Notes: generated by a model not told the origin, from the letters alone. A stretch of 37,382 nucleotides of DNA from Sandaracinaceae bacterium (GCA_947483975.1 CANKOL010000006.1:1-37382); one strand, 5' to 3'. Positions 18,230 through 37,382 are shown, numbered from the stretch's first letter. Numbers and translations: made by a program.

Positions 18230-19597
18230 ATGGAGCATCGAGGCGGTCGATTGGTTTCGCTGGTTTCGCTGGTTTGGCTGGGAGGCGTGTGTGCTGCGGT
18301 GCTGCTCACGAGCGGGCGGGCCCGCGCGCAGGACGCGGGGCCTGTGGTGGCCGACGCGGGGGTCGACGCAGGCGTAGCGCCGGCGACGCAGCCTGAAGAC
18401 GGGGCGGATGCGGCTGCGGGAGCGCCGGCGGACACCAGCGCGGAAGAGGCCGAGATCGCCGCCGAGATGGCCGCGATGCAGGAGGCCCAAGCGGCCGAGG
18501 GGGGCGGCGCGGACAGTCCTCCGCCGGCGAGCGAGTCGAGCGGAGCGACGGGTTCTTCGCGCGGCTTGAGCAACCTGATGAACCCCGCGATCAGCGCTGC
18601 GGGCACGCTCGTCGGTGGCTTCAGCTCCCGCGCGGACGGGACGGTCGGCGGCGCGCCGGATGATCTGCGCTCCGGGATCGACGTGCAGGAGGTCGAGATC
18701 CGCGCGAGCGCCATCGTCGATCCGTTCTTCCGCGCCGACGTCAGCATCACCGGAAACACCGAGGGAATCGCCGTCGAGGAGGCGTTCATCACGACGCTCG
18801 AGCTCCCACGCTTGACGCTCCGCGCCGGGCAGTTCGCGGCGAACCTCGGCCGACACAACATCCTGCACACGCACGCCTTCCCGTTCATCACCGCGCCGCT
18901 GCCGTGGCGCGCGCTGCTCGGGCCGGAGGGGCTGCGCAGCCCCGGCGTGTCGGCCGATCTGCTGTTGCCGCTGCCGTTCTACGCGGAGCTCAACGCGCAG
19001 GTCTTCGCCGGCGAGTGGTCGCTGCTCGAGGGCAGCATCCCGGACGACCCGCTCACCGTCGCCAACGAGAGCGTCCCCGACCGACGCAGCGACCGCGACC
19101 TCGCGTACGTCGGGCACCTGAAGACGCTGTTCGACCTCGGCGAGCCGACGACCCTCGAGCTCGGCGTGAGCTACCTGGGCGGTCGCAACGGCTTCGGAGG
19201 CTTCACGAACGTCGTCGCGGGGGACGTCACGCTCAAGTGGCGCCCGCTCGAGTCGGAGCGCTACTTCGGCTTCGACTGGACGACCGAGTACCTCTGGGTG
19301 CAGCGCGGCGAGGCGCCGAGCGACCGAACGACGGGCGGCGCGTACACGGCGATGCGCCTGCAGTTCGGGCAGCAGTGGTGGATTCAAGTCCGCGGCGCGC
19401 TGCTCGGGCTCCCCGCGGGGGACGCGGGGCGCGTCTGGCGCGCAGAGGCGCTCGCCGCGTTCGTCCCGAGCGAGTTCTCGGCGATTCGCCTGCAGTACGC
19501 GATCGAAGCCGATGAGTCCGGCGCCGCGCCGCCGGTCCACGAGGTCTTCGCGCAGATGGTCTTCTCGGTCGGCCCACACCCCGCACACGCGTATTGA
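18230..19597 (+). CDS. Outer-membrane beta-barrel associated with Zn/Mn-type ABC uptake operons
   Basis: Signal peptide ending ARA-Q, acidic linker, 'MNPAIS', 'VQEVE...AIVDPFFRAD', 'VEEAFITT..LP', 'GRHN.LHTHAFPF', 'PSEFSAIRLQY', C-terminal GPHPAHAY. Sits directly upstream of the binding protein and permease. Confidence 0.8.
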   Translation: MEHRGGRLVSLVSLVWLGGVCAAVLLTSGRARAQDAGPVVADAGVDAGVAPATQPEDGADAAAGAPADTSAEEAEIAAEMAAMQEAQAAEGGGADSPPPASESSGATGSSRGLSNLMNPAISAAGTLVGGFSSRADGTVGGAPDDLRSGIDVQEVEIRASAIVDPFFRADVSITGNTEGIAVEEAFITTLELPRLTLRAGQFAANLGRHNILHTHAFPFITAPLPWRALLGPEGLRSPGVSADLLLPLPFYAELNAQVFAGEWSLLEGSIPDDPLTVANESVPDRRSDRDLAYVGHLKTLFDLGEPTTLELGVSYLGGRNGFGGFTNVVAGDVTLKWRPLESERYFGFDWTTEYLWVQRGEAPSDRTTGGAYTAMRLQFGQQWWIQVRGALLGLPAGDAGRVWRAEALAAFVPSEFSAIRLQYAIEADESGAAPPVHEVFAQMVFSVGPHPAHAY

Positions 19598-19614
19598 TCG
19601 AAGGAGTGAACCCC

Positions 19615-20541
19615 ATGATTCGCAAAGCGTTCTTCGCAGTGCTCGCGCTCGGCGCCACCTGGCTCGGCGCATCTCCCGCGTTCGCCGAGCTTCGCGTCGT
19701 CACGACGACGACCGACCTCGGCTATCTCGTGCGCACGATCGGCGGCGATCACGTGCAGCTCGACACCATCTGTCAGGGCTCGCAGGACCCGCACTTCGTG
19801 CAGGCGCGCCCGAGCTACATGGTGTTGCTCAGTCGCGCGGACTTGGTCGTGGCCGTCGGGCTCGAGCTCGAGGTCGGCTGGCTGCCGTCGCTCGTGCAGG
19901 GCGCGCGAAATCCGGCGATCAACCCCGGTCGCCCCGGCTACCTCGAGGCGGCGACTGCCATCCATCCGATCGACGTGCCGACTGGAGGCGTCGATCGCTC
20001 GCGCGGCGACATTCACCCGTTCGGCAATCCGCACTTCTGGCTCGATCCGGCGAACGTGAAGCTCGCAGCGCACGCGATCGCCGAGCGCATGGCGCAGCTC
20101 GACGCGACGAACGCGGCGCTCTTTCGCGCGAACGACCGCGCGTTCGAGCAGCGGATCGACCGCGCGATGGTGCGCTGGACCGCGCAGATGGCGCCCTATC
20201 GCAACGCGAAGGTCGCGTCGTATCACGCGACGTTCAACTACTTCTTTCACCGCTTCGGGCTGAGCGCGATTGGCTATCTCGAGGACCGGCCGGGAATCCC
20301 GCCTTCGCCGGCGCATCTCGTGGACCTGATCCGGCAGATTCGGGAGCAGCACGTACCGGTGATCTTCCACGAGAGCTTCTACAACCGCTCGACCTCCGAC
20401 ATGGTCGCGGGGCGCTCCGGCGCGCACGTGCTCGCGCTCCCGACCTCGGTCGGCGGAGCGGCGGGCATCGGCTCCTACGAGCAGCTGATCGACTATCTCG
20501 TCTCGCACTTCATCGCCGGCATGGGGCAGGCGCACCCATGA
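19615..20541 (+). CDS. Metal ABC transporter substrate-binding protein, ZnuA/TroA family
   Basis: AAGGAG at 19601-19606 precedes ATG 19615. Signal AFA-E. 'VVTTT', 'QDPH', 'GLELEVGWL', 'HPFGNPHFWLDP', 'YHATFNYF', 'EDRPGIPPSPAHL'. Confidence 0.93.
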   Translation: MIRKAFFAVLALGATWLGASPAFAELRVVTTTTDLGYLVRTIGGDHVQLDTICQGSQDPHFVQARPSYMVLLSRADLVVAVGLELEVGWLPSLVQGARNPAINPGRPGYLEAATAIHPIDVPTGGVDRSRGDIHPFGNPHFWLDPANVKLAAHAIAERMAQLDATNAALFRANDRAFEQRIDRAMVRWTAQMAPYRNAKVASYHATFNYFFHRFGLSAIGYLEDRPGIPPSPAHLVDLIRQIREQHVPVIFHESFYNRSTSDMVAGRSGAHVLALPTSVGGAAGIGSYEQLIDYLVSHFIAGMGQAHP

Positions 20542-21368
20542 TGGACGCGCTGATCTTCCTCGGTCCGGCGCTCGCGATGTGCCTCGTGATCGCGAGCATC
20601 CACGTCTATCTCGGGATGCACGTGCTCGCGCGCGAGGTGATCTTCGTCGACCTCTCGCTCGCGCAGCTCGCGGCGCTCGGCGCGACGGTCGCGTCGCTCT
20701 GGGTCGAGGAGGAGGAGCCCGGCTGGCAGGCGCACGGCGCCGCGCTCGCCTTCGCGGTGATCGGCGCCGCGATCTTCGCGTTCACGCGGCGCGCGCGGAA
20801 GTACGTCTCGCAGGAGGCGATCGTCGGCATCGTCTACGCGGTGGCGAGCGCGGTGACCGTGCTCGTCGTCAGCCACTCGCCGCACGGGGCGGAGCACATC
20901 AAGGACATCCTCGTCGGCTCGCTGCTCAACACGACGTGGACGAACGTCTGGCAGACGGCGGCGGTGTACGTCGTGCTCGGCGTGCTGCAGGCGGTGTTCA
21001 GGCGCCGCTTCATCAGCATCTCGTGGACGCCCGACGAGGCGGAGAAGGAGAGCAAGTACGTCGAGCTCTGGGACCTGCTCTTCTATTTGCTCTTCGGCAT
21101 CGTCATCACGATCAGCGTGCAGTTCGCGGGGATCTTGCTCGTGTTCTCGTTCCTCATCGTGCCGGCGGTCATCACGCGGCTCTTCTCGAAGAGCATCCCC
21201 AAGCGGCTCTTCGCCGGCTGGGGAGTCGCGACGGCGGCGAGCGCGCTCGGCATCTGGGCGTCGTGGACGTGGGACTTCCCGACGGGCGCGGCGGTCGTCG
21301 CGGCGTTCGGCGCGCTCTTGCTCGTCGCGGGCTTGGCGCGGGCGGTCGTGCCGCGCGCGGCGGCGTAG
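20538..21368 (+). CDS. Metal ABC transporter permease, ZnuB/MntB (ABC-3) family
   Basis: ATGA overlap with the binding-protein gene. 'YLGMHVLAREVIFVDLSLAQLAALG', 'EAIVGIVY', 'GILLVFSFLIVPA', 'DFPTGAAVV'. Confidence 0.92.
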   Translation: MMDALIFLGPALAMCLVIASIHVYLGMHVLAREVIFVDLSLAQLAALGATVASLWVEEEEPGWQAHGAALAFAVIGAAIFAFTRRARKYVSQEAIVGIVYAVASAVTVLVVSHSPHGAEHIKDILVGSLLNTTWTNVWQTAAVYVVLGVLQAVFRRRFISISWTPDEAEKESKYVELWDLLFYLLFGIVITISVQFAGILLVFSFLIVPAVITRLFSKSIPKRLFAGWGVATAASALGIWASWTWDFPTGAAVVAAFGALLLVAGLARAVVPRAAA

Positions 21369-23455: not shown

Positions 23456-25674
23456 ATCACGTCGATGAGCATCTGATAGGCGCCGCCCGGAGTGCGGGCG
23501 AAGGGATGGCGCACGCGCACGTAGTAGGTGCCCGCGGGCAGCACGGCGGTCGTCAGGGACGAGCACAGCATGGCGATGCCGGAGTTGTCGTCCGACGCGA
23601 GCGGCATCGGGGGCGGCATCGCGGCGTCGAGTGCGGTGCAGGACATCGCGCCGTCGAACACCTCGACGAGCGTGTCGGCGATGCAGCCGCCGGCGCCGTC
23701 GCTGGTCGTGATCGCGAGCCGCGCGGGGGCCGCGAGGTTGATCTGCACGGTGTCGTAGTCGGTCGCGCCGCCGACCGTCAGGTCGCCCGTGAAGAGCGTG
23801 TCGCCCGACGCGGGGCCCTGCGCGTCGCAGAAGAGGCCGTTCGGCGAGGTGTCCGCGATGGTCGTCACGGCGCTGCAGACGCCGCCGAGACAGGCCGCCC
23901 CGGTCGCGCAGCGCGCGGTCGTCGAGGCCGCGTCGCACATCCCGCCGGCCGCGATGAACGTGCCGAGCGTGACCGTCAGGTCGTAGGTGCCGGTGCCGTC
24001 CACGATGACGTAGTAGCGACCGGCCGCGAGCGCGCCGGTGGTCGTCTCGAGGCGGCGGTCGGCGAAGGTGTCGCAGACGAGGTCGGCGGTGGCGCCGCAG
24101 CTGCCCGCACCGCGGATGTACACGGTCGTCTGGAAGCCGATGCCGGCGCCCGTCGCCCGCGCCGAGAGGAAGCCCGGAGCGGCGAGGTCGACGTAGTAGA
24201 GGCGCTCGTCCGTGCCGCCGTCGCGCGCGCAGCTCGGGGCGAGGTCGCTCGTGACGCCCATCGTCCCGAGCGTCGCGTTGACCGGGGTGCCGGGCGTGAT
24301 CGCCGTCGCCGTCGCGCAGACCGCGGCCGCCGGGTCGATGCAGGTCTCTGCGCCCGCCGTGCCGGCGCAGCTGAGGCCAGTGTCGCAGCGGCTCGCGAAG
24401 CCCGTTGGGTCGCACGCGCCGTCGAGCGCCACGATGTCACGGAGGCGCGCGGCGACCTCGAACTCGCCGGTGGTGAAGCTCATCGCCGTGCCGTAGCCGT
24501 CGACGACGATGAAGTAGGTGCCCGTCGCGTTCTGCACGACGACCTCTTCGGTCGCGTCGGCCGCGCGCGCGTCCGAGCAGCCGACCGCGGAGCCCGCGTC
24601 GCCGCACGCCGTCTCGACGGTGAGCACGACGTCGAAGCTGTCGGCCGCGAAGTTCGTCGGCGTCGAGGTGACGACGAGGTCGTACGCGCCCGCGGGCACG
24701 GCGACGCTGAACACGCGGTCGGGAGCCGCGCCGTCGCTCGAGCAGGACGGGGCGTAGAGGTCCTCGGCGCCGACGGTCGTGCCGCCGGTGGCAGCCGCGC
24801 CGAGCGTCAGCGCGCGCGCCGCGTCTCCACAGATCGACGAGGGCGAGCGGCACGCGTAGGCACCCGTCGCGTCGGCCGTGCAGGTCGAGCCGTCGACGCA
24901 CGCGCCGGTCGCGCCCATCGGGTCGCAGGTGCCGCCGACGGGGATGCGCCGCGTGACCGTGATGCCGACCTCGTACGCGCCGGACTCGCCGCCTGCGCCG
25001 TCGACGAACGCGAAGTACGTGCCCGCGGGGAGCGCGCTGAGCGTGAGCGTGTCGCCCGCAGGCGCCGCCGCCGCGCAGCCGAGCTCCGTCGTGCGATCGG
25101 CGCACGCCGAGCGAACGTAGACGGCGGCGTTGAACGCCGTCGCGGGGAAGTCCGTCGTGAGGGCGACGTCCGACTCCTCGTAGACCGTGAACACGAACGT
25201 GTTCTCGCCGGAAGTGCCGCCGCCGCAGGAGCCGCTCGCGGCGCTCGCGACGCCGGTGGTGTCGCCGTGGAGGTTCGTCCCGGGGGTGAGCGTGCGGGGG
25301 GCGGCGCCACCGGGGCAGACGCTCGCCTCGACGTTGCACGTCGCGTCGCAGCCGTCGCCCGCGGTCGTGTTGCCGTCGTCGCACTGCTCGGGCGCGGTCA
25401 GGACGCCGTCGCCGCAGAGGGTCGCGGGACCGAGGTCGACGTCGACCCAGCCCAGGTCGATGGCGCCGAGGTCGGGATCGAACGCTCCGTCAGTGCCGCC
25501 GCCGTCTCGAGGCGGTCCGAGATCGCGATCGACGAACGGCGCGTCGTCGACGGCGCCGTCGGGCAGCTCACCGCCGCCGTCCGTCGCGACCTTGGATGAG
25601 GAGCAGCCGACGCTGAAGAGCAGCGCGGGTGCGAGGAGAGACGCGGCGAGAAAGACGATGGAAGTGCGGCGCAT
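23452..25674 (-). CDS. Cys-rich lipoprotein (740 aa) with one DUF4215-type repeat and four PPC-like beta domains
   Basis: GGAGG precedes ATG 25674. Lipobox FSVG-C. 'CGDGVL...EQCDDGNT..GDGC..TC.VE'. Repeated G(T/R)Y(F/Y)xxVDG and GTYYVRV modules separated by Cys-rich linkers. Confidence 0.85.
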   Translation of the reverse strand: MRRTSIVFLAASLLAPALLFSVGCSSSKVATDGGGELPDGAVDDAPFVDRDLGPPRDGGGTDGAFDPDLGAIDLGWVDVDLGPATLCGDGVLTAPEQCDDGNTTAGDGCDATCNVEASVCPGGAAPRTLTPGTNLHGDTTGVASAASGSCGGGTSGENTFVFTVYEESDVALTTDFPATAFNAAVYVRSACADRTTELGCAAAAPAGDTLTLSALPAGTYFAFVDGAGGESGAYEVGITVTRRIPVGGTCDPMGATGACVDGSTCTADATGAYACRSPSSICGDAARALTLGAAATGGTTVGAEDLYAPSCSSDGAAPDRVFSVAVPAGAYDLVVTSTPTNFAADSFDVVLTVETACGDAGSAVGCSDARAADATEEVVVQNATGTYFIVVDGYGTAMSFTTGEFEVAARLRDIVALDGACDPTGFASRCDTGLSCAGTAGAETCIDPAAAVCATATAITPGTPVNATLGTMGVTSDLAPSCARDGGTDERLYYVDLAAPGFLSARATGAGIGFQTTVYIRGAGSCGATADLVCDTFADRRLETTTGALAAGRYYVIVDGTGTYDLTVTLGTFIAAGGMCDAASTTARCATGAACLGGVCSAVTTIADTSPNGLFCDAQGPASGDTLFTGDLTVGGATDYDTVQINLAAPARLAITTSDGAGGCIADTLVEVFDGAMSCTALDAAMPPPMPLASDDNSGIAMLCSSLTTAVLPAGTYYVRVRHPFARTPGGAYQMLIDVI

Positions 25675-31860: not shown

Positions 31861-34800
31861 TCAGGGCGTGATGGTGAAGTCGTCGACGGCAAAGCCTTCA
31901 TCGGTGCCGCTGACGTCCGTCGAGAGCACGAAACGGAAACGCACGAGCGGCAGCCCCGCGACGCTCTCCGCGGTGCGTGAGGCGGTGCGCCACACGCCCG
32001 CTGTGCCGCTGTTGCCGTTCCAGGCGTTGGTGACCGCGTCGCTGTACCAGTTGGTGCCGTCGCCGGCGACGCCGAGCTTCGTCCAGGTGCTGCCGTCTCG
32101 AGTGACCTCGAGCCAGCCGCGGTCGGAGCCCACGCGCGTCTTGTAGATGTGGAGGAACGACAGCGTGGGGTCCACGCTCACCGCGGTGAAGTCGAAGCAC
32201 GGCGAGAGCAAGTAGCTGAGCTCGCCGTTGTTGTAGGGCGCCGTCAGGCTCGTCACCCACGCCGACGTCCCCGCGCCCGCGCTCGAGATGAACAGCTTGG
32301 TCGGCGTCCCGCGCGCCCACGAGCTCAGCGTGCCATTCGTCGTCCAGCCGCCCGCGTCAGTCTCGAAGCCCTCCGAGTACGGGACGCCGTCGACCATCGC
32401 GACGATCGGCTCGATGGCCACGATGACCGAGCGAGTGTCGTTCGTCGTGACCGTGTCACCGACGAGCGAGAGCGCGACGGCGATCGTGCGCGACCCGCCC
32501 GTGAGGACGGCGGGAGTCGTGAACGTGTGTTCGTAGACTTCGCCCGGGCGCAGCGTGTGTGTGACGGACTCCGCGACGGGCGCGCCGCCGTCGATCGAGT
32601 ACGAGATGCCGAACGCGCCGACCGTCGTGATTCCGTCGTTGCGCACCGTGGCGCGGATCGGCACCGAGACTCCCGCGCACGCGACCGGAGGTGCCGCGTT
32701 GACGGCCGTCAGCGCGAGGTCTGCGAGCTGGTTGTCGAGCCTCACATCGTCGACGCCGAAGCCCTCGTATTGGAGGCTCGAGTCGGCCGACATCACGAAG
32801 CGCAGTCGCACGTCCGGCTGTCCCGCGACGTCCGTCAGGCGAAGCGAGGCCGTGCGCCAAGCGCCCGCGACTCCGCTCGTGCCGTTCCAGTACTGGCTGG
32901 TGGCGTTGTTGTACCAGTTGGTGCCTTGGCCCGAGAGGCCGAGCTTTCGCCACGCCATGCCGCCGTCCGTCGACACCTCGACCCAGCCCTCGTCGCAGCA
33001 GCTCTCGGTCGTGAAGATGTGCGAGAACGAGAGCTGCGGGTCGCCGAACACCGCCGAGAGATCGAGGCGCGGCGAGGTCAGATAGGAGAGCTCCGAGGTG
33101 TTGTAGTTGCCGAGCAGGTTCGTCACCCACGCCGACGTGCCGGACGCCGCGTGGTTGATGAACGTCGCGGCGGGCGTGCCGCGCGCCCAACTCGACGCCG
33201 TGCCGCTCGTGGTCCAGCCGCCGGCGCTCGCCTCGAAGTCCTCGAAGTACGAGAACCGCGGCCCGCAGATCCCGGCAGCGTCGGGGAAGACCGCCGCGTC
33301 CATGTCGTTGCAGTCGACGTCGCAGTACGCGCCGTCCCCGTCGAGGTCGACGAGCGCGTCGGTCGTCGCGGGGTCGCAGTCGTCGTCGATCAGGTTGCCG
33401 CAGACCTCGAGGGCCGCCGGGGAGACGCGCGCGTTCGCGTCGTTGCAGTCGCCGCAGGTGCCGACGCAGGCTGCGCCGCAGGCGAGGTCTGCGAAGCCGT
33501 CGCGGTCGTCGTCCTCGTTCACGCCGTCGAGCACGCCGTTGCAGTTGTTGTCGATTCCGTCGCAGAGCTCGACGCCGCCCGGGCGCCGCGTGGGGTCCGA
33601 GTCGTCGCAGTCGACGTTGCAGAGCGAGCCGTCCACGTCCGCGTCGAAGCGGTCGGGCGTCGCCGGGTCGCAGTCGTCGTCGAGCGTGTTGTTGCAGAGC
33701 TCCGGGCAGGTCGGGCACGTCGTCGCGCGGAAGTCGTCGCAGTCGACGTCGCACATCGAGCCGTCGCCGTCGAAGTCCGACAGGTCGGGCGTCGCCGCGT
33801 CGCAGTCGTTGTCGAGCCCGTCGCCGCAGACCTCGCGGAAGAGCGGGCTGCGCGCAGGGTCGTGGTCGTCGCAGTCGAAGTTGCAGCTCGAGCCGTCCAT
33901 GTCCGCGTCGAGCGAGTCGCGCGTCGTCGGGCTGCAGTCGTCGTCGATGCGGTTGCAGGGGACCTCGGTCATACCTGGTCCGACCGCGACGTCGTCGTCG
34001 TTGCAGTCGGTGCCGCCGCAGGTGTCGTCGCGCGCGCCGTCCCCGTCGGCGTCGGGACACTCCATGCACAGCGGCGTCAGCGCGCAGTCGATGCCGCAGT
34101 TCGTGCAGGTCTCGCCGCCCTCGCACATCCCGTTGCCGCAAGTGTCCGGCTCGACGACGCAGCGCGACGTGCAGCCGTCGCCGTCGATCGGGTTGCCGTC
34201 GTCGCACTCCTCGCCCGAGGCGGTGTTCACCACCGAGTCGCCGCAGCGCACGAGCGTGCAGTCCGCGTCGCACTCTGCGGTCTGCCCGCCGTCGTCGCAC
34301 TGCTCGCTGCCCGCGAGGACGTGATCGCCGCACACGGCGGGGACGATGCTCCGCGTGCACGTCGACGGCTCGCCCGCGCACTCCCAGCCGAACTCGACGA
34401 AGCAGAGCGCGGCGCAGCCATCGCCGTCCGCGGCGTTGCCGTCGTCGCAGATCTCGGCGGACGAGAGCACCCCGTTGCCGCAGGGGTCGGTGACGGGCGT
34501 CGGGGTGTCACGGACGGTGCAGGCGCCCAGCGTCGCCGCCACGGCTGCGGCCGCGACGAAAGGGAGCAGCGAGCGTCTCCGGCGCCCTGCGAACGCGACG
34601 CCCAGCAGCATCAGCGCGAGGAGGCCGCCGCGCGCGTCGCCGCGGCTCTGCCCAGGGACCGCGCAGCCGCAGCCGCTCGGCTGGGGCGCGGGAGGCGAGA
34701 TGCGCCCGCCGTCCGGCGACACGACGTTCATGTCGAGCGTCGATGGGCCGCCGTCCGTCGTCGGCACTTCGCCGTCGAGCGCGCCAGCGTCGGGCATGCC

Positions 34801-36240
34801 CGCGTCCGGCATCACGATCACCGGCGCCTGACACTCGCCGCGCAGGCAGGTCTCGCCCGACGGGCAGACGACGCCGGCGCACGCGCTCGCGCAGGTGCCG
34901 CCGCGGCAGATGCGCCCGGGGGCACAGAGCACGCCGAGACACGCCGCTTCGACGCAGTATCCCGTCTCTTCACACGCTTCGCCGACGGGGCAGCCCGTGA
35001 CCTCGCAGCGCGTGTTGCAGTTGCCCGCCGTGCAGACCTCGCACGACGCGCAGGTCACGACGGCGCACAGATCCTGGCAGCTGCCGCCGACGCACTCGCG
35101 TCCCGGCGGGCAGATGACGCCGTTGCACACGCCGATGCAGGCGCCCTCGACGCAGCGCTCGCCGGCGGCGCACGTCACGGAGGCGCACGCGTCTTCGAGG
35201 CAGACGCCCGTCGGTGAGCACGTGAAGCCCGTCGCGCAGCCGCCCTCGAAGCACGGCGTGATGCAGCGCCCGCGGTCGCAGATGTCGACGGAGCCGCACA
35301 TCCCGGGATCCTCGTCGACCATGCCGTCGCAGTCGTTGTCGAAGGCGTCGCAGCGCTCGGCGCTCGCGGCGACGATCGGCTCGCACTCGATGCTCGAGCC
35401 GCGGCATTGCGTGCGCCCCTCGGCGCAGACGCCGACCGCGTCGGGCAGCGTGCAGGGATTCCCCGCGTCGGGGCACTCGACGACGCCGCGCCGGATGCGG
35501 AAGCGCCAGATGCCCGGCTCACCGACGTTCGAGCCGTCGCAGACGACGCGGCTGATGCCGTCGAGCCGTGAGCCCATGATCGACACGAAATCCGTCAGGT
35601 TGCCCGCGTCGAAGCCGACCTGCGCCGGAGTGCCGCCGAAGCCGCCCGTGCCGCCGCTCGCGTCGCCCGTCTCCCACTCGCACTGCGTGTAGCGAAACTC
35701 GACGTCGAAGTCGCCCGCGATCCCGCAGTAGCGTGACTCGGTCAGGATCAACTGGAACGTCATCTGGTTGCTGTCGTCGCAGCTGAAGAAGCCGACGTGG
35801 TCCCAGGTGATGACCATCCGACCCGGCTCGACGTGCCACCACACGCCGTTCGTCGTCGGGTTCGCGCAGCCCAAGCCGCCGCCGAAGCCGCTGCACGACG
35901 CGCCTCGGATGTCGACGTCCGCCCAATAGGGCGCGATGGTCGGGCGGTCAGCGACGGGGAACGCCGTCGGCGTGAACGTCGAGAGCGGCCCCTGGAACGT
36001 GATGTTTCCGTTCGTGTTGACGTAGGCGAGCGTGTGCCGCCGTCCGAAGAACTCGAGCCCCCCAGGGAAGGCCGCCGTCAGGTCGATCATGTTCGACGAG
36101 CCATCGTCGTTCGGCGATAGACACTCCGTGCCGTAGCCGCGCACCCCGCCGAGCGTGTCGATGAGCATGGGCTGCGCGAGCGCGATGGTGGGCGAGCCAG
36201 CGAGGGCCAAAGTCAGAAGAAAGCCGACAATTCGGTTCAC
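31861..36240 (-). CDS. Large exported protein (1459 aa): NIDO domain, Cys-rich stalk, internal MYXO-CTERM plus internal lipobox, DUF4215 and MopE-like repeats, two jelly-roll (MAM-like) domains flanking a CARDB-like domain
   Basis: GTG 36240 gives a signal ending ALA-Q. NIDO motifs 'NDDGSS...YVNTNGNITF...IAPYWADVD...TFQLIL...EFRY...WETGDASGG'. Repeats 'DCxDxD....PG..E.C.xxDxDC'. Duplicated 'Y.E.FE...GGWT...SSWARGTP' domain. Confidence 0.88.
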   Translation of the reverse strand: MNRIVGFLLTLALAGSPTIALAQPMLIDTLGGVRGYGTECLSPNDDGSSNMIDLTAAFPGGLEFFGRRHTLAYVNTNGNITFQGPLSTFTPTAFPVADRPTIAPYWADVDIRGASCSGFGGGLGCANPTTNGVWWHVEPGRMVITWDHVGFFSCDDSNQMTFQLILTESRYCGIAGDFDVEFRYTQCEWETGDASGGTGGFGGTPAQVGFDAGNLTDFVSIMGSRLDGISRVVCDGSNVGEPGIWRFRIRRGVVECPDAGNPCTLPDAVGVCAEGRTQCRGSSIECEPIVAASAERCDAFDNDCDGMVDEDPGMCGSVDICDRGRCITPCFEGGCATGFTCSPTGVCLEDACASVTCAAGERCVEGACIGVCNGVICPPGRECVGGSCQDLCAVVTCASCEVCTAGNCNTRCEVTGCPVGEACEETGYCVEAACLGVLCAPGRICRGGTCASACAGVVCPSGETCLRGECQAPVIVMPDAGMPDAGALDGEVPTTDGGPSTLDMNVVSPDGGRISPPAPQPSGCGCAVPGQSRGDARGGLLALMLLGVAFAGRRRRSLLPFVAAAAVAATLGACTVRDTPTPVTDPCGNGVLSSAEICDDGNAADGDGCAALCFVEFGWECAGEPSTCTRSIVPAVCGDHVLAGSEQCDDGGQTAECDADCTLVRCGDSVVNTASGEECDDGNPIDGDGCTSRCVVEPDTCGNGMCEGGETCTNCGIDCALTPLCMECPDADGDGARDDTCGGTDCNDDDVAVGPGMTEVPCNRIDDDCSPTTRDSLDADMDGSSCNFDCDDHDPARSPLFREVCGDGLDNDCDAATPDLSDFDGDGSMCDVDCDDFRATTCPTCPELCNNTLDDDCDPATPDRFDADVDGSLCNVDCDDSDPTRRPGGVELCDGIDNNCNGVLDGVNEDDDRDGFADLACGAACVGTCGDCNDANARVSPAALEVCGNLIDDDCDPATTDALVDLDGDGAYCDVDCNDMDAAVFPDAAGICGPRFSYFEDFEASAGGWTTSGTASSWARGTPAATFINHAASGTSAWVTNLLGNYNTSELSYLTSPRLDLSAVFGDPQLSFSHIFTTESCCDEGWVEVSTDGGMAWRKLGLSGQGTNWYNNATSQYWNGTSGVAGAWRTASLRLTDVAGQPDVRLRFVMSADSSLQYEGFGVDDVRLDNQLADLALTAVNAAPPVACAGVSVPIRATVRNDGITTVGAFGISYSIDGGAPVAESVTHTLRPGEVYEHTFTTPAVLTGGSRTIAVALSLVGDTVTTNDTRSVIVAIEPIVAMVDGVPYSEGFETDAGGWTTNGTLSSWARGTPTKLFISSAGAGTSAWVTSLTAPYNNGELSYLLSPCFDFTAVSVDPTLSFLHIYKTRVGSDRGWLEVTRDGSTWTKLGVAGDGTNWYSDAVTNAWNGNSGTAGVWRTASRTAESVAGLPLVRFRFVLSTDVSGTDEGFAVDDFTITP

Positions 36241-36424: not shown

Positions 36425-36751
36425 CTACTCGAGCCCAGCGTCGCGGCGGAACTCGTGGCACTGCGCGCTGCCGCGCTCGAAGTCGCGACAGGTCGTACCG
36501 CGGACCTCGTAGATGGCGCAGGCGTTCGCGGTCGCTTCGGTGCCGAGGTGCACGCACGCGCCGTCGTCCCGCGTCGCGAACGCGGCCTCACCGAAGTGTC
36601 CCGGCTGAAGCTGTGCGACGAGGTCCTCGCGCCCGAGGCTCTTCCAGCGCGCGAGGTCCTCGGCGGGGACGAGGATGCAGCCGTCGCGCCCCGTCCGGCA
36701 GCAAGCACCACAGGCGAGGCAGTCGAGCGTGAGCGGGGCGTCGGCAGACAT
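36425..36751 (-). CDS. YkgJ-family cysteine-cluster (CxxCxxCC) protein
   Basis: GGAGG precedes ATG 36751. DCLACGACC, 'GACVHL', 'CAIYEVR...CRDF'. Confidence 0.88.
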   Translation of the reverse strand: MSADAPLTLDCLACGACCRTGRDGCILVPAEDLARWKSLGREDLVAQLQPGHFGEAAFATRDDGACVHLGTEATANACAIYEVRGTTCRDFERGSAQCHEFRRDAGLE

Positions 36752-36794
36752 CAGGTTCCTCCAGCATGCGTTGGCGCGATATGCTCGCGCCACC

Positions 36795-37382
36795 ATGACG
36801 ACACCTGCGGTCGGCTCCATCGAGTTCTTCTTCGACGTCGGCTCGCCCTACAGCTACCTCGCGGCCGAGCTCATCGGAGGCGTCGCCGAGCGCACCGGCG
36901 TGCCCGTGCGCTGGCGGCCGTTCTTGCTCGGCGCCGTCTTCAAGGCGAGCGGCAACGAGATGCCCGCGCGCATCCCGGCGAAGGCGCGCTGGATGCTCGA
37001 GGACCTGCGCGCCTGGGCGCGGCTCTACGAGGTGCCGTTCCGGATGGCGTCGCGCTTCCCGCTCAACACGCTGCGCACGCAGCGCGGGCTCTGCGCGGCC
37101 GCGCTCAGCGCTGGCGAAGGCGCCGTGCCGGCGTACGCGCTCGCGCTCTTTCAGGCGTACTGGGTCGATGATCGCGATGTGTCGTCGGACGCGGAGCTCG
37201 CCGTGCTCGCCGACGCCGCTGGGCTCGACGGCGCGGCGATCGTCGCGGCGATCGACGCGCCTGCGACCAAGGACGCGCTCCGCGCCAACACCGACGACGC
37301 CGTCGCGCGCGGCGCGTTCGGCGCGCCGACGTGCTTCTATGATGGCGCTATGTTCTGGGGGCACGACCGCCTGCCGCTGCTC
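36795..37382 (+). CDS. 2-hydroxychromene-2-carboxylate isomerase / kappa-GST (DsbA-fold) family protein, 3'-truncated by the window end
   Basis: Translated by hand (absent from the ORF track because there is no stop): MTTPAVGSIEFFFDVGSPYSYLA...WRPFLLGAVFKASGN...FPLNT...GAFGAPT...MFWGHDRL. Confidence 0.92.
   Translation, partial: MTTPAVGSIEFFFDVGSPYSYLAAELIGGVAERTGVPVRWRPFLLGAVFKASGNEMPARIPAKARWMLEDLRAWARLYEVPFRMASRFPLNTLRTQRGLCAAALSAGEGAVPAYALALFQAYWVDDRDVSSDAELAVLADAAGLDGAAIVAAIDAPATKDALRANTDDAVARGAFGAPTCFYDGAMFWGHDRLPLL

Follow-up and report, generated by a model that had tools for sequence, protein, structure and literature searches.

An internal MYXO-CTERM tag followed by a lipoprotein signal: a candidate precursor of two surface proteins in a Sandaracinaceae bacterium

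If a MYXO-CTERM sorting tag and a lipoprotein signal follow one another inside a single open reading frame (ORF), does the resulting protein remain whole, or is it cut into two proteins that are sorted separately? This question is raised by a gene in the 37,382-nucleotide stretch CANKOL010000006.1:1-37382 of the Sandaracinaceae bacterium assembly GCA_947483975.1 (this whole stretch is referred to below as the window), which represents a lake-water myxobacterium (5.3 Mb, 71% GC, 524 contigs, 81% complete). The ORF, located at 36240..31861 on the minus strand, starts with GTG and extends without interruption for 1459 amino acids (aa), or 150.8 kDa, and its G+C content at third codon positions is steady along the entire length (0.80-1.0), inclusive of the joint. 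An initial annotation of this DNA described an internal MYXO-CTERM succeeded by a lipoprotein signal with no stop codon between them, and aa 522-574 (window 34677-34519, minus strand) do read in this manner. The interpretation which we favour, at a probability of roughly 0.63, is that one precursor would be cut by both myxosortase and LspA into two lipid-anchored proteins, referred to here as products A and B and encoded by the A half and B half of the gene. The joint between them is real, conserved and widespread. The features of the gene are as follows:

31861..36240, minus strand: whole ORF, a predicted two-protein precursor of 1459 aa and 150.8 kDa (ten full-length orthologues, itself included, have 1435-1492 aa)
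36175..36240, minus strand: N-terminal signal peptide of the Sec/signal peptidase I (SPase I) type, aa 1-22 (ALA-Q), read from the sequence; A22 and Q23 are invariant in ten orthologues
35476..36174, minus strand: NIDO-like head of product A, about aa 23-255 (84% mean column conservation; PF06119 match with E 6e-28, strongest over aa 142-250)
34816..35475, minus strand: Cys-rich stalk of product A, about aa 256-475 (the segment from signal peptide to tag contains 46 Cys)
34678..34815, minus strand: Pro/Asp/Gly-rich linker (PDAG type) ahead of the tag, aa 476-521, read from the sequence (50% conservation)
34573..34677, minus strand: internal MYXO-CTERM, aa 522-556, with GCGC motif (Cys524, Cys526), membrane helix 1 and Arg cluster (TIGR03901 24.2 bits, cut-off 20; C524, C526, G530, R553 and R554 invariant in 10/10)
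34573..34584, minus strand: Arg cluster RRRR, aa 553-556 (88% conservation versus about 50% for both helices)
34567..34580, minus strand: Shine-Dalgarno (SD)-like GGAGA in the Arg codons plus in-frame CTG (Leu558) (-6.6 kcal/mol, P=0.011 uncorrected)
34519..34572, minus strand: second signal, hydrophobic (h-) region and lipobox LGA-C, aa 557-574 (C574 invariant in 10/10 and the top-ranked Cys; 52 Cys, an even number, after it)
34521-34519, minus strand: codon of Cys574, the predicted lipid-bearing first residue of product B
34081..34485, minus strand: Cys-rich acidic repeats (TIGR02232/DUF4215) of product B, about aa 586-720 (TIGR02232 60.5 bits, cut-off 20.8)
33265..34065, minus strand: MopE-type repeat stalk of product B, about aa 726-992 (PF11617, E 9e-35, 7 stretches)
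31864..33264, minus strand: MAM-like/CARDB-like/MAM-like head of product B, aa 993-1459 (PF20773, E 1e-10, aa 1067-1169; PF07705 just below cut-off)

Four public sequencing runs (X1, X6, X10 and X12) were compared with the gene, of which X1 may be the source of the assembly. The gene is in one piece in X1 and also in X6, which comes from a different study and whose contig shows 10 substitutions and a single gap, located upstream of the gene. The contig from X12, a third study, spans 33542-35916 with 100 substitutions and no gaps, whereas X10 yielded only short pieces, none spanning the joint. The joint is thus confirmed by independent data, as the X6 and X12 contigs bridge it without a gap. 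A programmed frameshift at this point was considered and rejected, the other frames having no nearby stop and no slippery run being evident on inspection by eye.

The mid-protein TIGR03901 match that the initial annotation anticipated is found at aa 522-556, with 24.2 bits against a cut-off of 20 (31.4 bits in the genome search). It sits 903 aa before the stop codon, away from the position seen in canonical members, and is not filed as a canonical MYXO-CTERM, yet it should work like one. The second signal consists of RRRR, a 14-aa h-region and LGA-C, in line with the consensus lipobox pattern, and it starts at aa 553 instead of at the beginning of the protein. The statement that about 885 aa of extracytoplasmic-type domains follow is borne out, since 885 aa follow Cys574, with MopE-type, MAM-like and TIGR02232 matches. 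In a Pfam scan the NIDO, MopE-type repeat and InhA-like MAM models exceeded their cut-offs while CARDB and DUF4215 remained below them, and the second MAM-like copy was recognised from an internal sequence repeat. Sequence searches of the PDB with the NIDO head and with the MAM-CARDB-MAM head returned no matches.

A protein search identified nine further full-length fused proteins (1435-1492 aa, 55-79% identical), one of them from Sandaracinus amylolyticus (P0008, also P0270 and P0271; WP_053230383.1). Between aa 518 and 586, six residues and no others are identical in all ten orthologues, viz. C524, C526, G530, R553, R554 and C574. The mean conservation of the Arg cluster (0.88) and of the tag motif (0.77) exceeds that of the two helices (about 0.5) and of the spacers (0.35-0.40). 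TIGR03901 is over its cut-off in 6/10. The distance from the Arg cluster to the lipobox Cys varies from 22 to 34 aa and in 10/10 there is no Met between them; in P0004 the first Cys past the Arg cluster lies in the h-region and the lipobox Cys is residue 575. (The signal-parsing pass left L041 unparsed and assigned too late a Cys in L033, L039 and L055.) With a lipobox matrix trained on 22 stand-alone homologue signals, the junction Cys ranked first of the 96-104 Cys in each of the ten fused orthologues, due to which the lipobox is not a chance occurrence; its scores of 9.5-18.8 bits compare with a leave-one-out median of 9.4 for the stand-alone signals. Further, the A half contains 44-48 Cys and the B half 46-54 after the lipobox (46 and 52, respectively, in this gene), the numbers being even in 10/10. 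Therefore each half can pair its own disulfides, and Cys574 is the odd one, free for a lipid. In hydrophobicity, helix 1 of four internal tags (2.5-2.7) is similar to that of 24 terminal tags (median 2.52). AlphaFold models of the joint from six sequences gave two helices interrupted at the Arg cluster, at a mean predicted local distance difference test score (pLDDT) of 43.9 that is too weak to count. In a scan of metagenomes no orthologous joint was found, the 78 loci obtained encoding distant repeat proteins (29-50% identity), and a junction profile run against 1.84 billion representatives was weak, many of its 44 matches being terminal tags.

How the two halves came to be joined is indicated by the relatives. 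More than 20 stand-alone B homologues, most of them 840-920 aa long, start with an ordinary lipoprotein signal, while stand-alone A homologues end in a terminal tag, and stand-alone paralogues (e.g. L004, L008, L010-L014) have the same Cys-rich stalk as product A ahead of such a tag. A search with the B half in 301 genomes of the order identified 12 loci in 11 genomes, of which 6 are fused, 2 are split but adjacent, and 4 are stand-alone, with no A half within 1.5 kb upstream (these orthologues overlap with those of the protein search, and the counts are not summed). In the two split loci (G263 and G304, the latter junction also being present in L056), the A gene, with a terminal tag, ends at the Arg cluster and overlaps at ATGA the B gene, which encodes an ordinary lipoprotein; a GGAGG is located five bases upstream of ATGA, within the Arg codons (-9.5 and -10.0 kcal/mol). 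Separate genes in relatives, which the initial annotation would have taken as a sign of an artefact or a one-off fusion, thus do exist, but an artefact or one-off event is contradicted by the ten fused orthologues.

In a tree based on the A half (22 rows), nine fused proteins form one clade (97/91); the remaining one, P0010, clusters instead with the two split pairs (100/100). The approximately unbiased (AU) test rejects a topology in which all fused proteins are monophyletic (p 7.6e-7). The tree for the B half (20 rows, omitting P0002 and 10 stand-alone proteins of an initial 31-row set) gives the same result with less strength (p 0.013; 3 changes). Hence there were at least two fusions, or one fusion followed by a re-split. 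Judged from these sequences, the gene is best explained by the fusion of two surface-protein genes whose translation had been coupled; that the fused and split states are interchangeable provides the strongest reason to assume that the fused form gives rise to the same two proteins in the end. In L079 and L093 the order is opposite to that in the window, with a MAM-domain gene followed immediately by a NIDO-stalk gene, which again links the NIDO and MAM head types. An A-type half containing NIDO is also joined by the same joint to another lipoprotein in P0017 (aa 563-620) and to a barrel-OmpA half in P0097 (aa 1228-1290); as these partners differ, they point to independent fusions.

The enzymes needed for such a processing are encoded in this genome, viz. 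the myxosortase MrtC (NF040594, 233 bits, cut-off 195; one of 8 proteases scanned out of 9 found), GspD of type II secretion (517 bits, cut-off 351), two LspA and eight Lgt-family matches, some copies of which could serve the tag-lipidating step. Two tandem LspA genes adjoin an Lgt gene at G000:C343:3458-5512. From the observed layout, conservation, split state and presence of these enzymes, we infer the topology, lipidation, cuts and final locations as follows. Sec would export the NIDO and stalk half, with SPase I removing aa 1-22. The MYXO-CTERM helix would then halt the transfer, the Arg cluster remaining in the cytoplasm, where it may double as the cytoplasmic stop of the tag and as the n-region of the second signal. 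The second hydrophobic stretch would resume export, so that two ectodomains would stand in the periplasm on a two-helix hairpin. Lgt would lipidate Cys574 and LspA would cut before it, yielding lipoprotein B (886 aa, about 92 kDa); MrtC would cut at the CxC tag, yielding lipid-anchored protein A (about 504 aa, 52 kDa), which type II secretion would carry to the surface, as for TraA. The spent hairpin (about 47 aa, 4.6 kDa) would be left for degradation. The two-in-one precursor proposed in the initial annotation therefore has good comparative backing in the invariant signal residues, split orthologues, even Cys counts and enzymes, with cleavage and lipidation being predicted from these. Of its proposal of a 1:1 stoichiometry, the part concerning synthesis stands, since the fusion fixes equal synthesis of A and B at one translocon; any functional 1:1 complex is putative. 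Products A and B are most likely stalked adhesin- or receptor-type surface proteins working together in adhesion or recognition.

Several observations weigh against this interpretation. TIGR03901 is under its cut-off in two orthologues (19.8 and 17.8) and unreported in two, and the G001 orthologue carries a frameshift in its B half. The SD-like site and in-frame CTG are present in this gene and, in weaker form, in G233 and G280. Every tag-plus-signal joint, this one included, is known from its sequence. That Lgt and LspA would use a signal tethered to an upstream helix is an assumption, and the loop is short (about 4-5 residues); even for TraA, the MYXO-CTERM lipid and cut site have the status of a model (PMC11980579). 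One tag (L209, G233:C1:7047552-7047656) is followed by a 117-aa Arg-rich open tail without a second signal, probably due to a lost stop codon. Lastly, the genomes surveyed for such joints (see below) were not picked blind, and kin are not independent.

If only one of the two cuts occurs, there are two possibilities: LspA would release B, with A retained in the inner membrane by the hairpin, or myxosortase would release A, with the intact hairpin still anchoring B. For the fused frame to be conserved a single cut suffices, as the halves come apart by either of them; the tag is under cut-off or unreported in 4/10 orthologues, and in M. xanthus the loss of MrtX does not fully abolish surface display (PMC11980579). 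However, the CxC of the tag and the lipobox Cys are both invariant in 10/10 amid drifting neighbours, and helix 1 is as hydrophobic in the internal as in the terminal tags. A single cut is thus unlikely.

It is quite unlikely that the protein instead stays whole, as an inner-membrane protein with two periplasmic ectodomains on a two-helix hairpin and with signals that are relics. Two helices connected by a short Arg loop are not unusual in membrane proteins, and cleavage is deduced from sequence. However, relic signals would be expected to decay, whereas here three Cys and both Arg of the pair have stayed invariant at 55-79% identity; the split relatives make two separately sorted proteins; and the same joint occurs ahead of barrel-OmpA halves (C381, L279), which must leave the inner membrane. 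Further, MXAN_5598 appears in an outer-membrane-vesicle proteome, as a list entry with no peptide map in the available text (PMC4158809).

A further alternative concerns the Arg codons, for which the initial annotation had noted no SD-linked start. This has to be corrected, since a weak GGAGA (from CGG-AGA, 34580-34576) lies six bases ahead of the in-frame CTG of Leu558, with -6.6 kcal/mol and P=0.011 against 1500 synonymous recodings (one of 11 junctions tested, uncorrected). AGA makes up 0.6% of the Arg codons in this genome, and similar sites occur in G233 (-6.3 kcal/mol, P=0.055), in G280 (-5.5, P=0.105) and at C42 of the same genome (-9.5, P=0.005). These data would fit a product B made mainly by internal restart at CTG558, with the read-through precursor being cut at the tag and its tail degraded. 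However, the site is missing in G001 and G004 (0 kcal/mol) and weak in G312 (-2.6 kcal/mol). Due to the lack of a stop codon at the joint, the full precursor is made whether or not restart occurs; CTG is a poor start, and the signal so produced would be without a basic n-region. The spacing is one base longer than in the GGAGG-N5-ATGA of the split pairs, by which the old start would come into frame, so that the site may be read as a relic of the fusion. We read GGAGA as a relic of the second gene's ribosome-binding site or as a weak restart, the former being favoured from these sequences, and restart as the main source of B is as improbable as a protein that stays whole.

The remaining possibility, an assembly error or the isolated loss of a stop codon, to which the 524-contig, 81% complete genome and the frameshift elsewhere in the gene of relative G001 could lend support, is already refuted by the contigs from two other studies that cross the joint in frame, by the ten fused orthologues, one of them in a closed isolate chromosome (P0008, P0271), and by the loci of the relatives. 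The frameshift in that same-genus orthologue (L002/L193, G001:C2, near 762100) lies in the MopE repeats of the B half and reflects either a sequencing error or decay.

Turning to known systems, one gene giving two proteins is exemplified by the Bradyrhizobium FbcH cytochrome b-c1 precursor, which is split at an internal signal peptide behind a membrane helix, although it differs in employing SPase I, in yielding respiratory membrane proteins and in having no known sorting tag or lipoprotein. In comparison with ordinary Lgt/LspA lipoproteins, inclusive of the stand-alone B homologues, the second signal has the same basic n-region, h-region and lipobox Cys and is followed by the same mature domains, but it has no free N-terminus and no Met, and hangs from the tag helix. 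Product A shares with TraA and other terminal MYXO-CTERM proteins the order of signal peptide, head, Cys-rich stalk, disordered linker, CxC tag, helix and Arg cluster (PMC11980579; 10.1101/2023.06.07.544157), and traA and traB overlap as do the split pairs of this family. In contrast to TraA, this protein has a NIDO-like head and a tag located 903 aa away from its C-terminus, and an NCBIfam scan gave no match to TraA family models, the downstream neighbours being Cys-rich lipoproteins. For TraA, myxosortase cleavage and a need for the two Cys have been published; its size shift upon myxosortase loss was not visible, as only about 40 aa are removed (PMC11980579).

The initial annotation knew of no characterised precedent for this route. 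In part this requires modification, as an internal MYXO-CTERM was noted in one protein, MXAN_5598 of Myxococcus xanthus, where it was called rare, a fusion was suggested, and processing of the N part was proposed (Guo, Haft and Wall, mBio 2025, PMC11980579), and as cleavage at a central sorting signal has been shown for HVO_0405 of Haloferax volcanii (PMC7157517). Like our gene, MXAN_5598 has an internal tag after an adhesin half, between two exported halves, and a proposed fusion origin. However, its C half is of the barrel-OmpA type (a joint of this type is present in our genome at G000:C381), whereas here it is a lipoprotein with MopE repeats, MAM-like domains and a conserved lipobox; the available text on MXAN_5598 names no second signal peptide or export route for the C half (PMC11980579). 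Natural split orthologues and eight joints in one genome go beyond that case, and processing is a prediction in both. HVO_0405 likewise resulted from a gene fusion that left a tripartite sorting signal mid-protein, but it involves an archaeosortase, a strain-specific fusion and an unstable full-length form, and no second export signal is described in the text available (PMC7157517). In open-access text, 'internal MYXO-CTERM' was found in one paper and a joint of sorting tag and lipobox was not described; a second signal peptide, especially one of the lipoprotein form, was not encountered in the literature so searched.

To what extent is this joint found elsewhere? TIGR03901 hits, 113 in number, were examined in four genomes (this genome, G233, G051 and G182). 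In this genome 6 of the top 29 matches (of 36) are internal, 3 of them over cut-off, and all 6 are followed by a second signal. G051 has 4 internal tags among its 24 hits (24/24 examined), all with a signal; the top 30 of 69 hits in G233 include 2 internal ones with a lipobox and 1 open tail without signal, and the top 30 of 75 in G182 include no internal tag. Overall, 13 of the 113 have an open tail longer than 40 aa and 12/13 of these carry a second signal, while hydrophobic stretches at random positions amount to about 2%. As G233 and G051 were picked because of a prior hit, this proportion is no phylum frequency. With a joint profile, which favours the layout of this gene, 13 such joints from 10 families were seen in the 21 loci inspected (of 30 returned) in 201 genomes.

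A combined pattern and similarity search added two further joints in this genome (C19 and C162), giving 8 in total, 6 of lipoprotein type and 2 of SPase I type, with unrelated partner halves behind them, e.g. an alpha-amylase and a barrel-OmpA protein; C111 was a false hit of the genome pattern scan. The seven other joints (G000:C246:5407, C126:12610, C224:6977, C42:22621, C162:10723 at a contig edge, C381:4387 and C19:14984-16138) comprise five of lipoprotein type, one ahead of the alpha-amylase, and two of SPase I type, one ahead of the barrel-OmpA half. The second signal, judged by its sequence, need not be of lipoprotein type, as SPase I signals also occur. Both states occur within one paralogue family, whose members at C224, C126 and C162 are fused whereas those at C117 and C65 are separate genes overlapping at ATGA or GTGA. 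At G000:C117:3252, C65:13763 and C107:9318 and in G233 (L214, L219), the gene ending in a terminal tag has a stop codon that shares bases with the start of the following gene (ATGA/GTGA), and in several of these GGAG(G) is located shortly before the overlap, within the Arg cluster or past it; C117, C65 and L214 are split paralogues of the fused C224, C126 and C162. Such overlapping tags likely represent, on sequence grounds, the pre-fusion state. If, as these cases suggest, the ribosome-binding site of the overlapping gene (GGAGG-N5-ATGA) is often contained in the Arg codons of the terminal tag before it, one small frameshift would fuse the pair. The chances are about even that the tag-plus-signal hairpin is a general and reversible polyprotein joint of Myxococcota, with myxosortase and LspA (or SPase I) restoring both proteins and with Lgt and LspA acting on an internal, helix-tethered lipobox.

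Multi-unit arrangements were also noted. P0244 is a very long protein with two internal joints, a candidate polyprotein of three exported proteins, and P0227, P0234, P0248 and P0269, each with one internal joint and one terminal tag, are likewise candidate multi-unit polyproteins. P0233 (aa 771-850) has four PEP-CTERM motifs with a new signal peptide after at least one of them and is, as read from its sequence, the same joint in the PEP-CTERM sorting system.

If the cutting is true, then bacteria split natural polyproteins with ordinary envelope enzymes, lipoprotein maturation can begin at an internal signal without a free N-terminus, and about 7-20% of the tagged ORFs in 3/4 genomes would encode two proteins with different sorting, which are missed by predictors of N-terminal signals. 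A test of myxosortase cutting is also made easier by the joint, because each cut would shift the size by 50-90 kDa, as HVO_0405 did for archaeosortase, and the locus is a good test case in having an orthologue in a named isolate species (S. amylolyticus) as well as natural split controls. The fused and split pairs hint, in addition, at which surface proteins work together.

The gene is the first of a run of Cys-rich lipoprotein genes. Three lipoprotein genes follow on the same strand (window 31795-23452, minus strand), viz. a 1.5-kaa Cys-rich repeat protein, a protein which we take from its motifs to be phosphoesterase/phospholipase C-like, and a PPC-domain protein starting at 25674. Upstream (36588-37382, plus strand) are a small Cys-cluster ORF and a divergent gene, presumably for a DsbA-like thioredoxin-fold protein, and further down at 18230-21368 (plus strand) lies what we assume to be a metal ABC-transporter-like cluster with a barrel-like protein.

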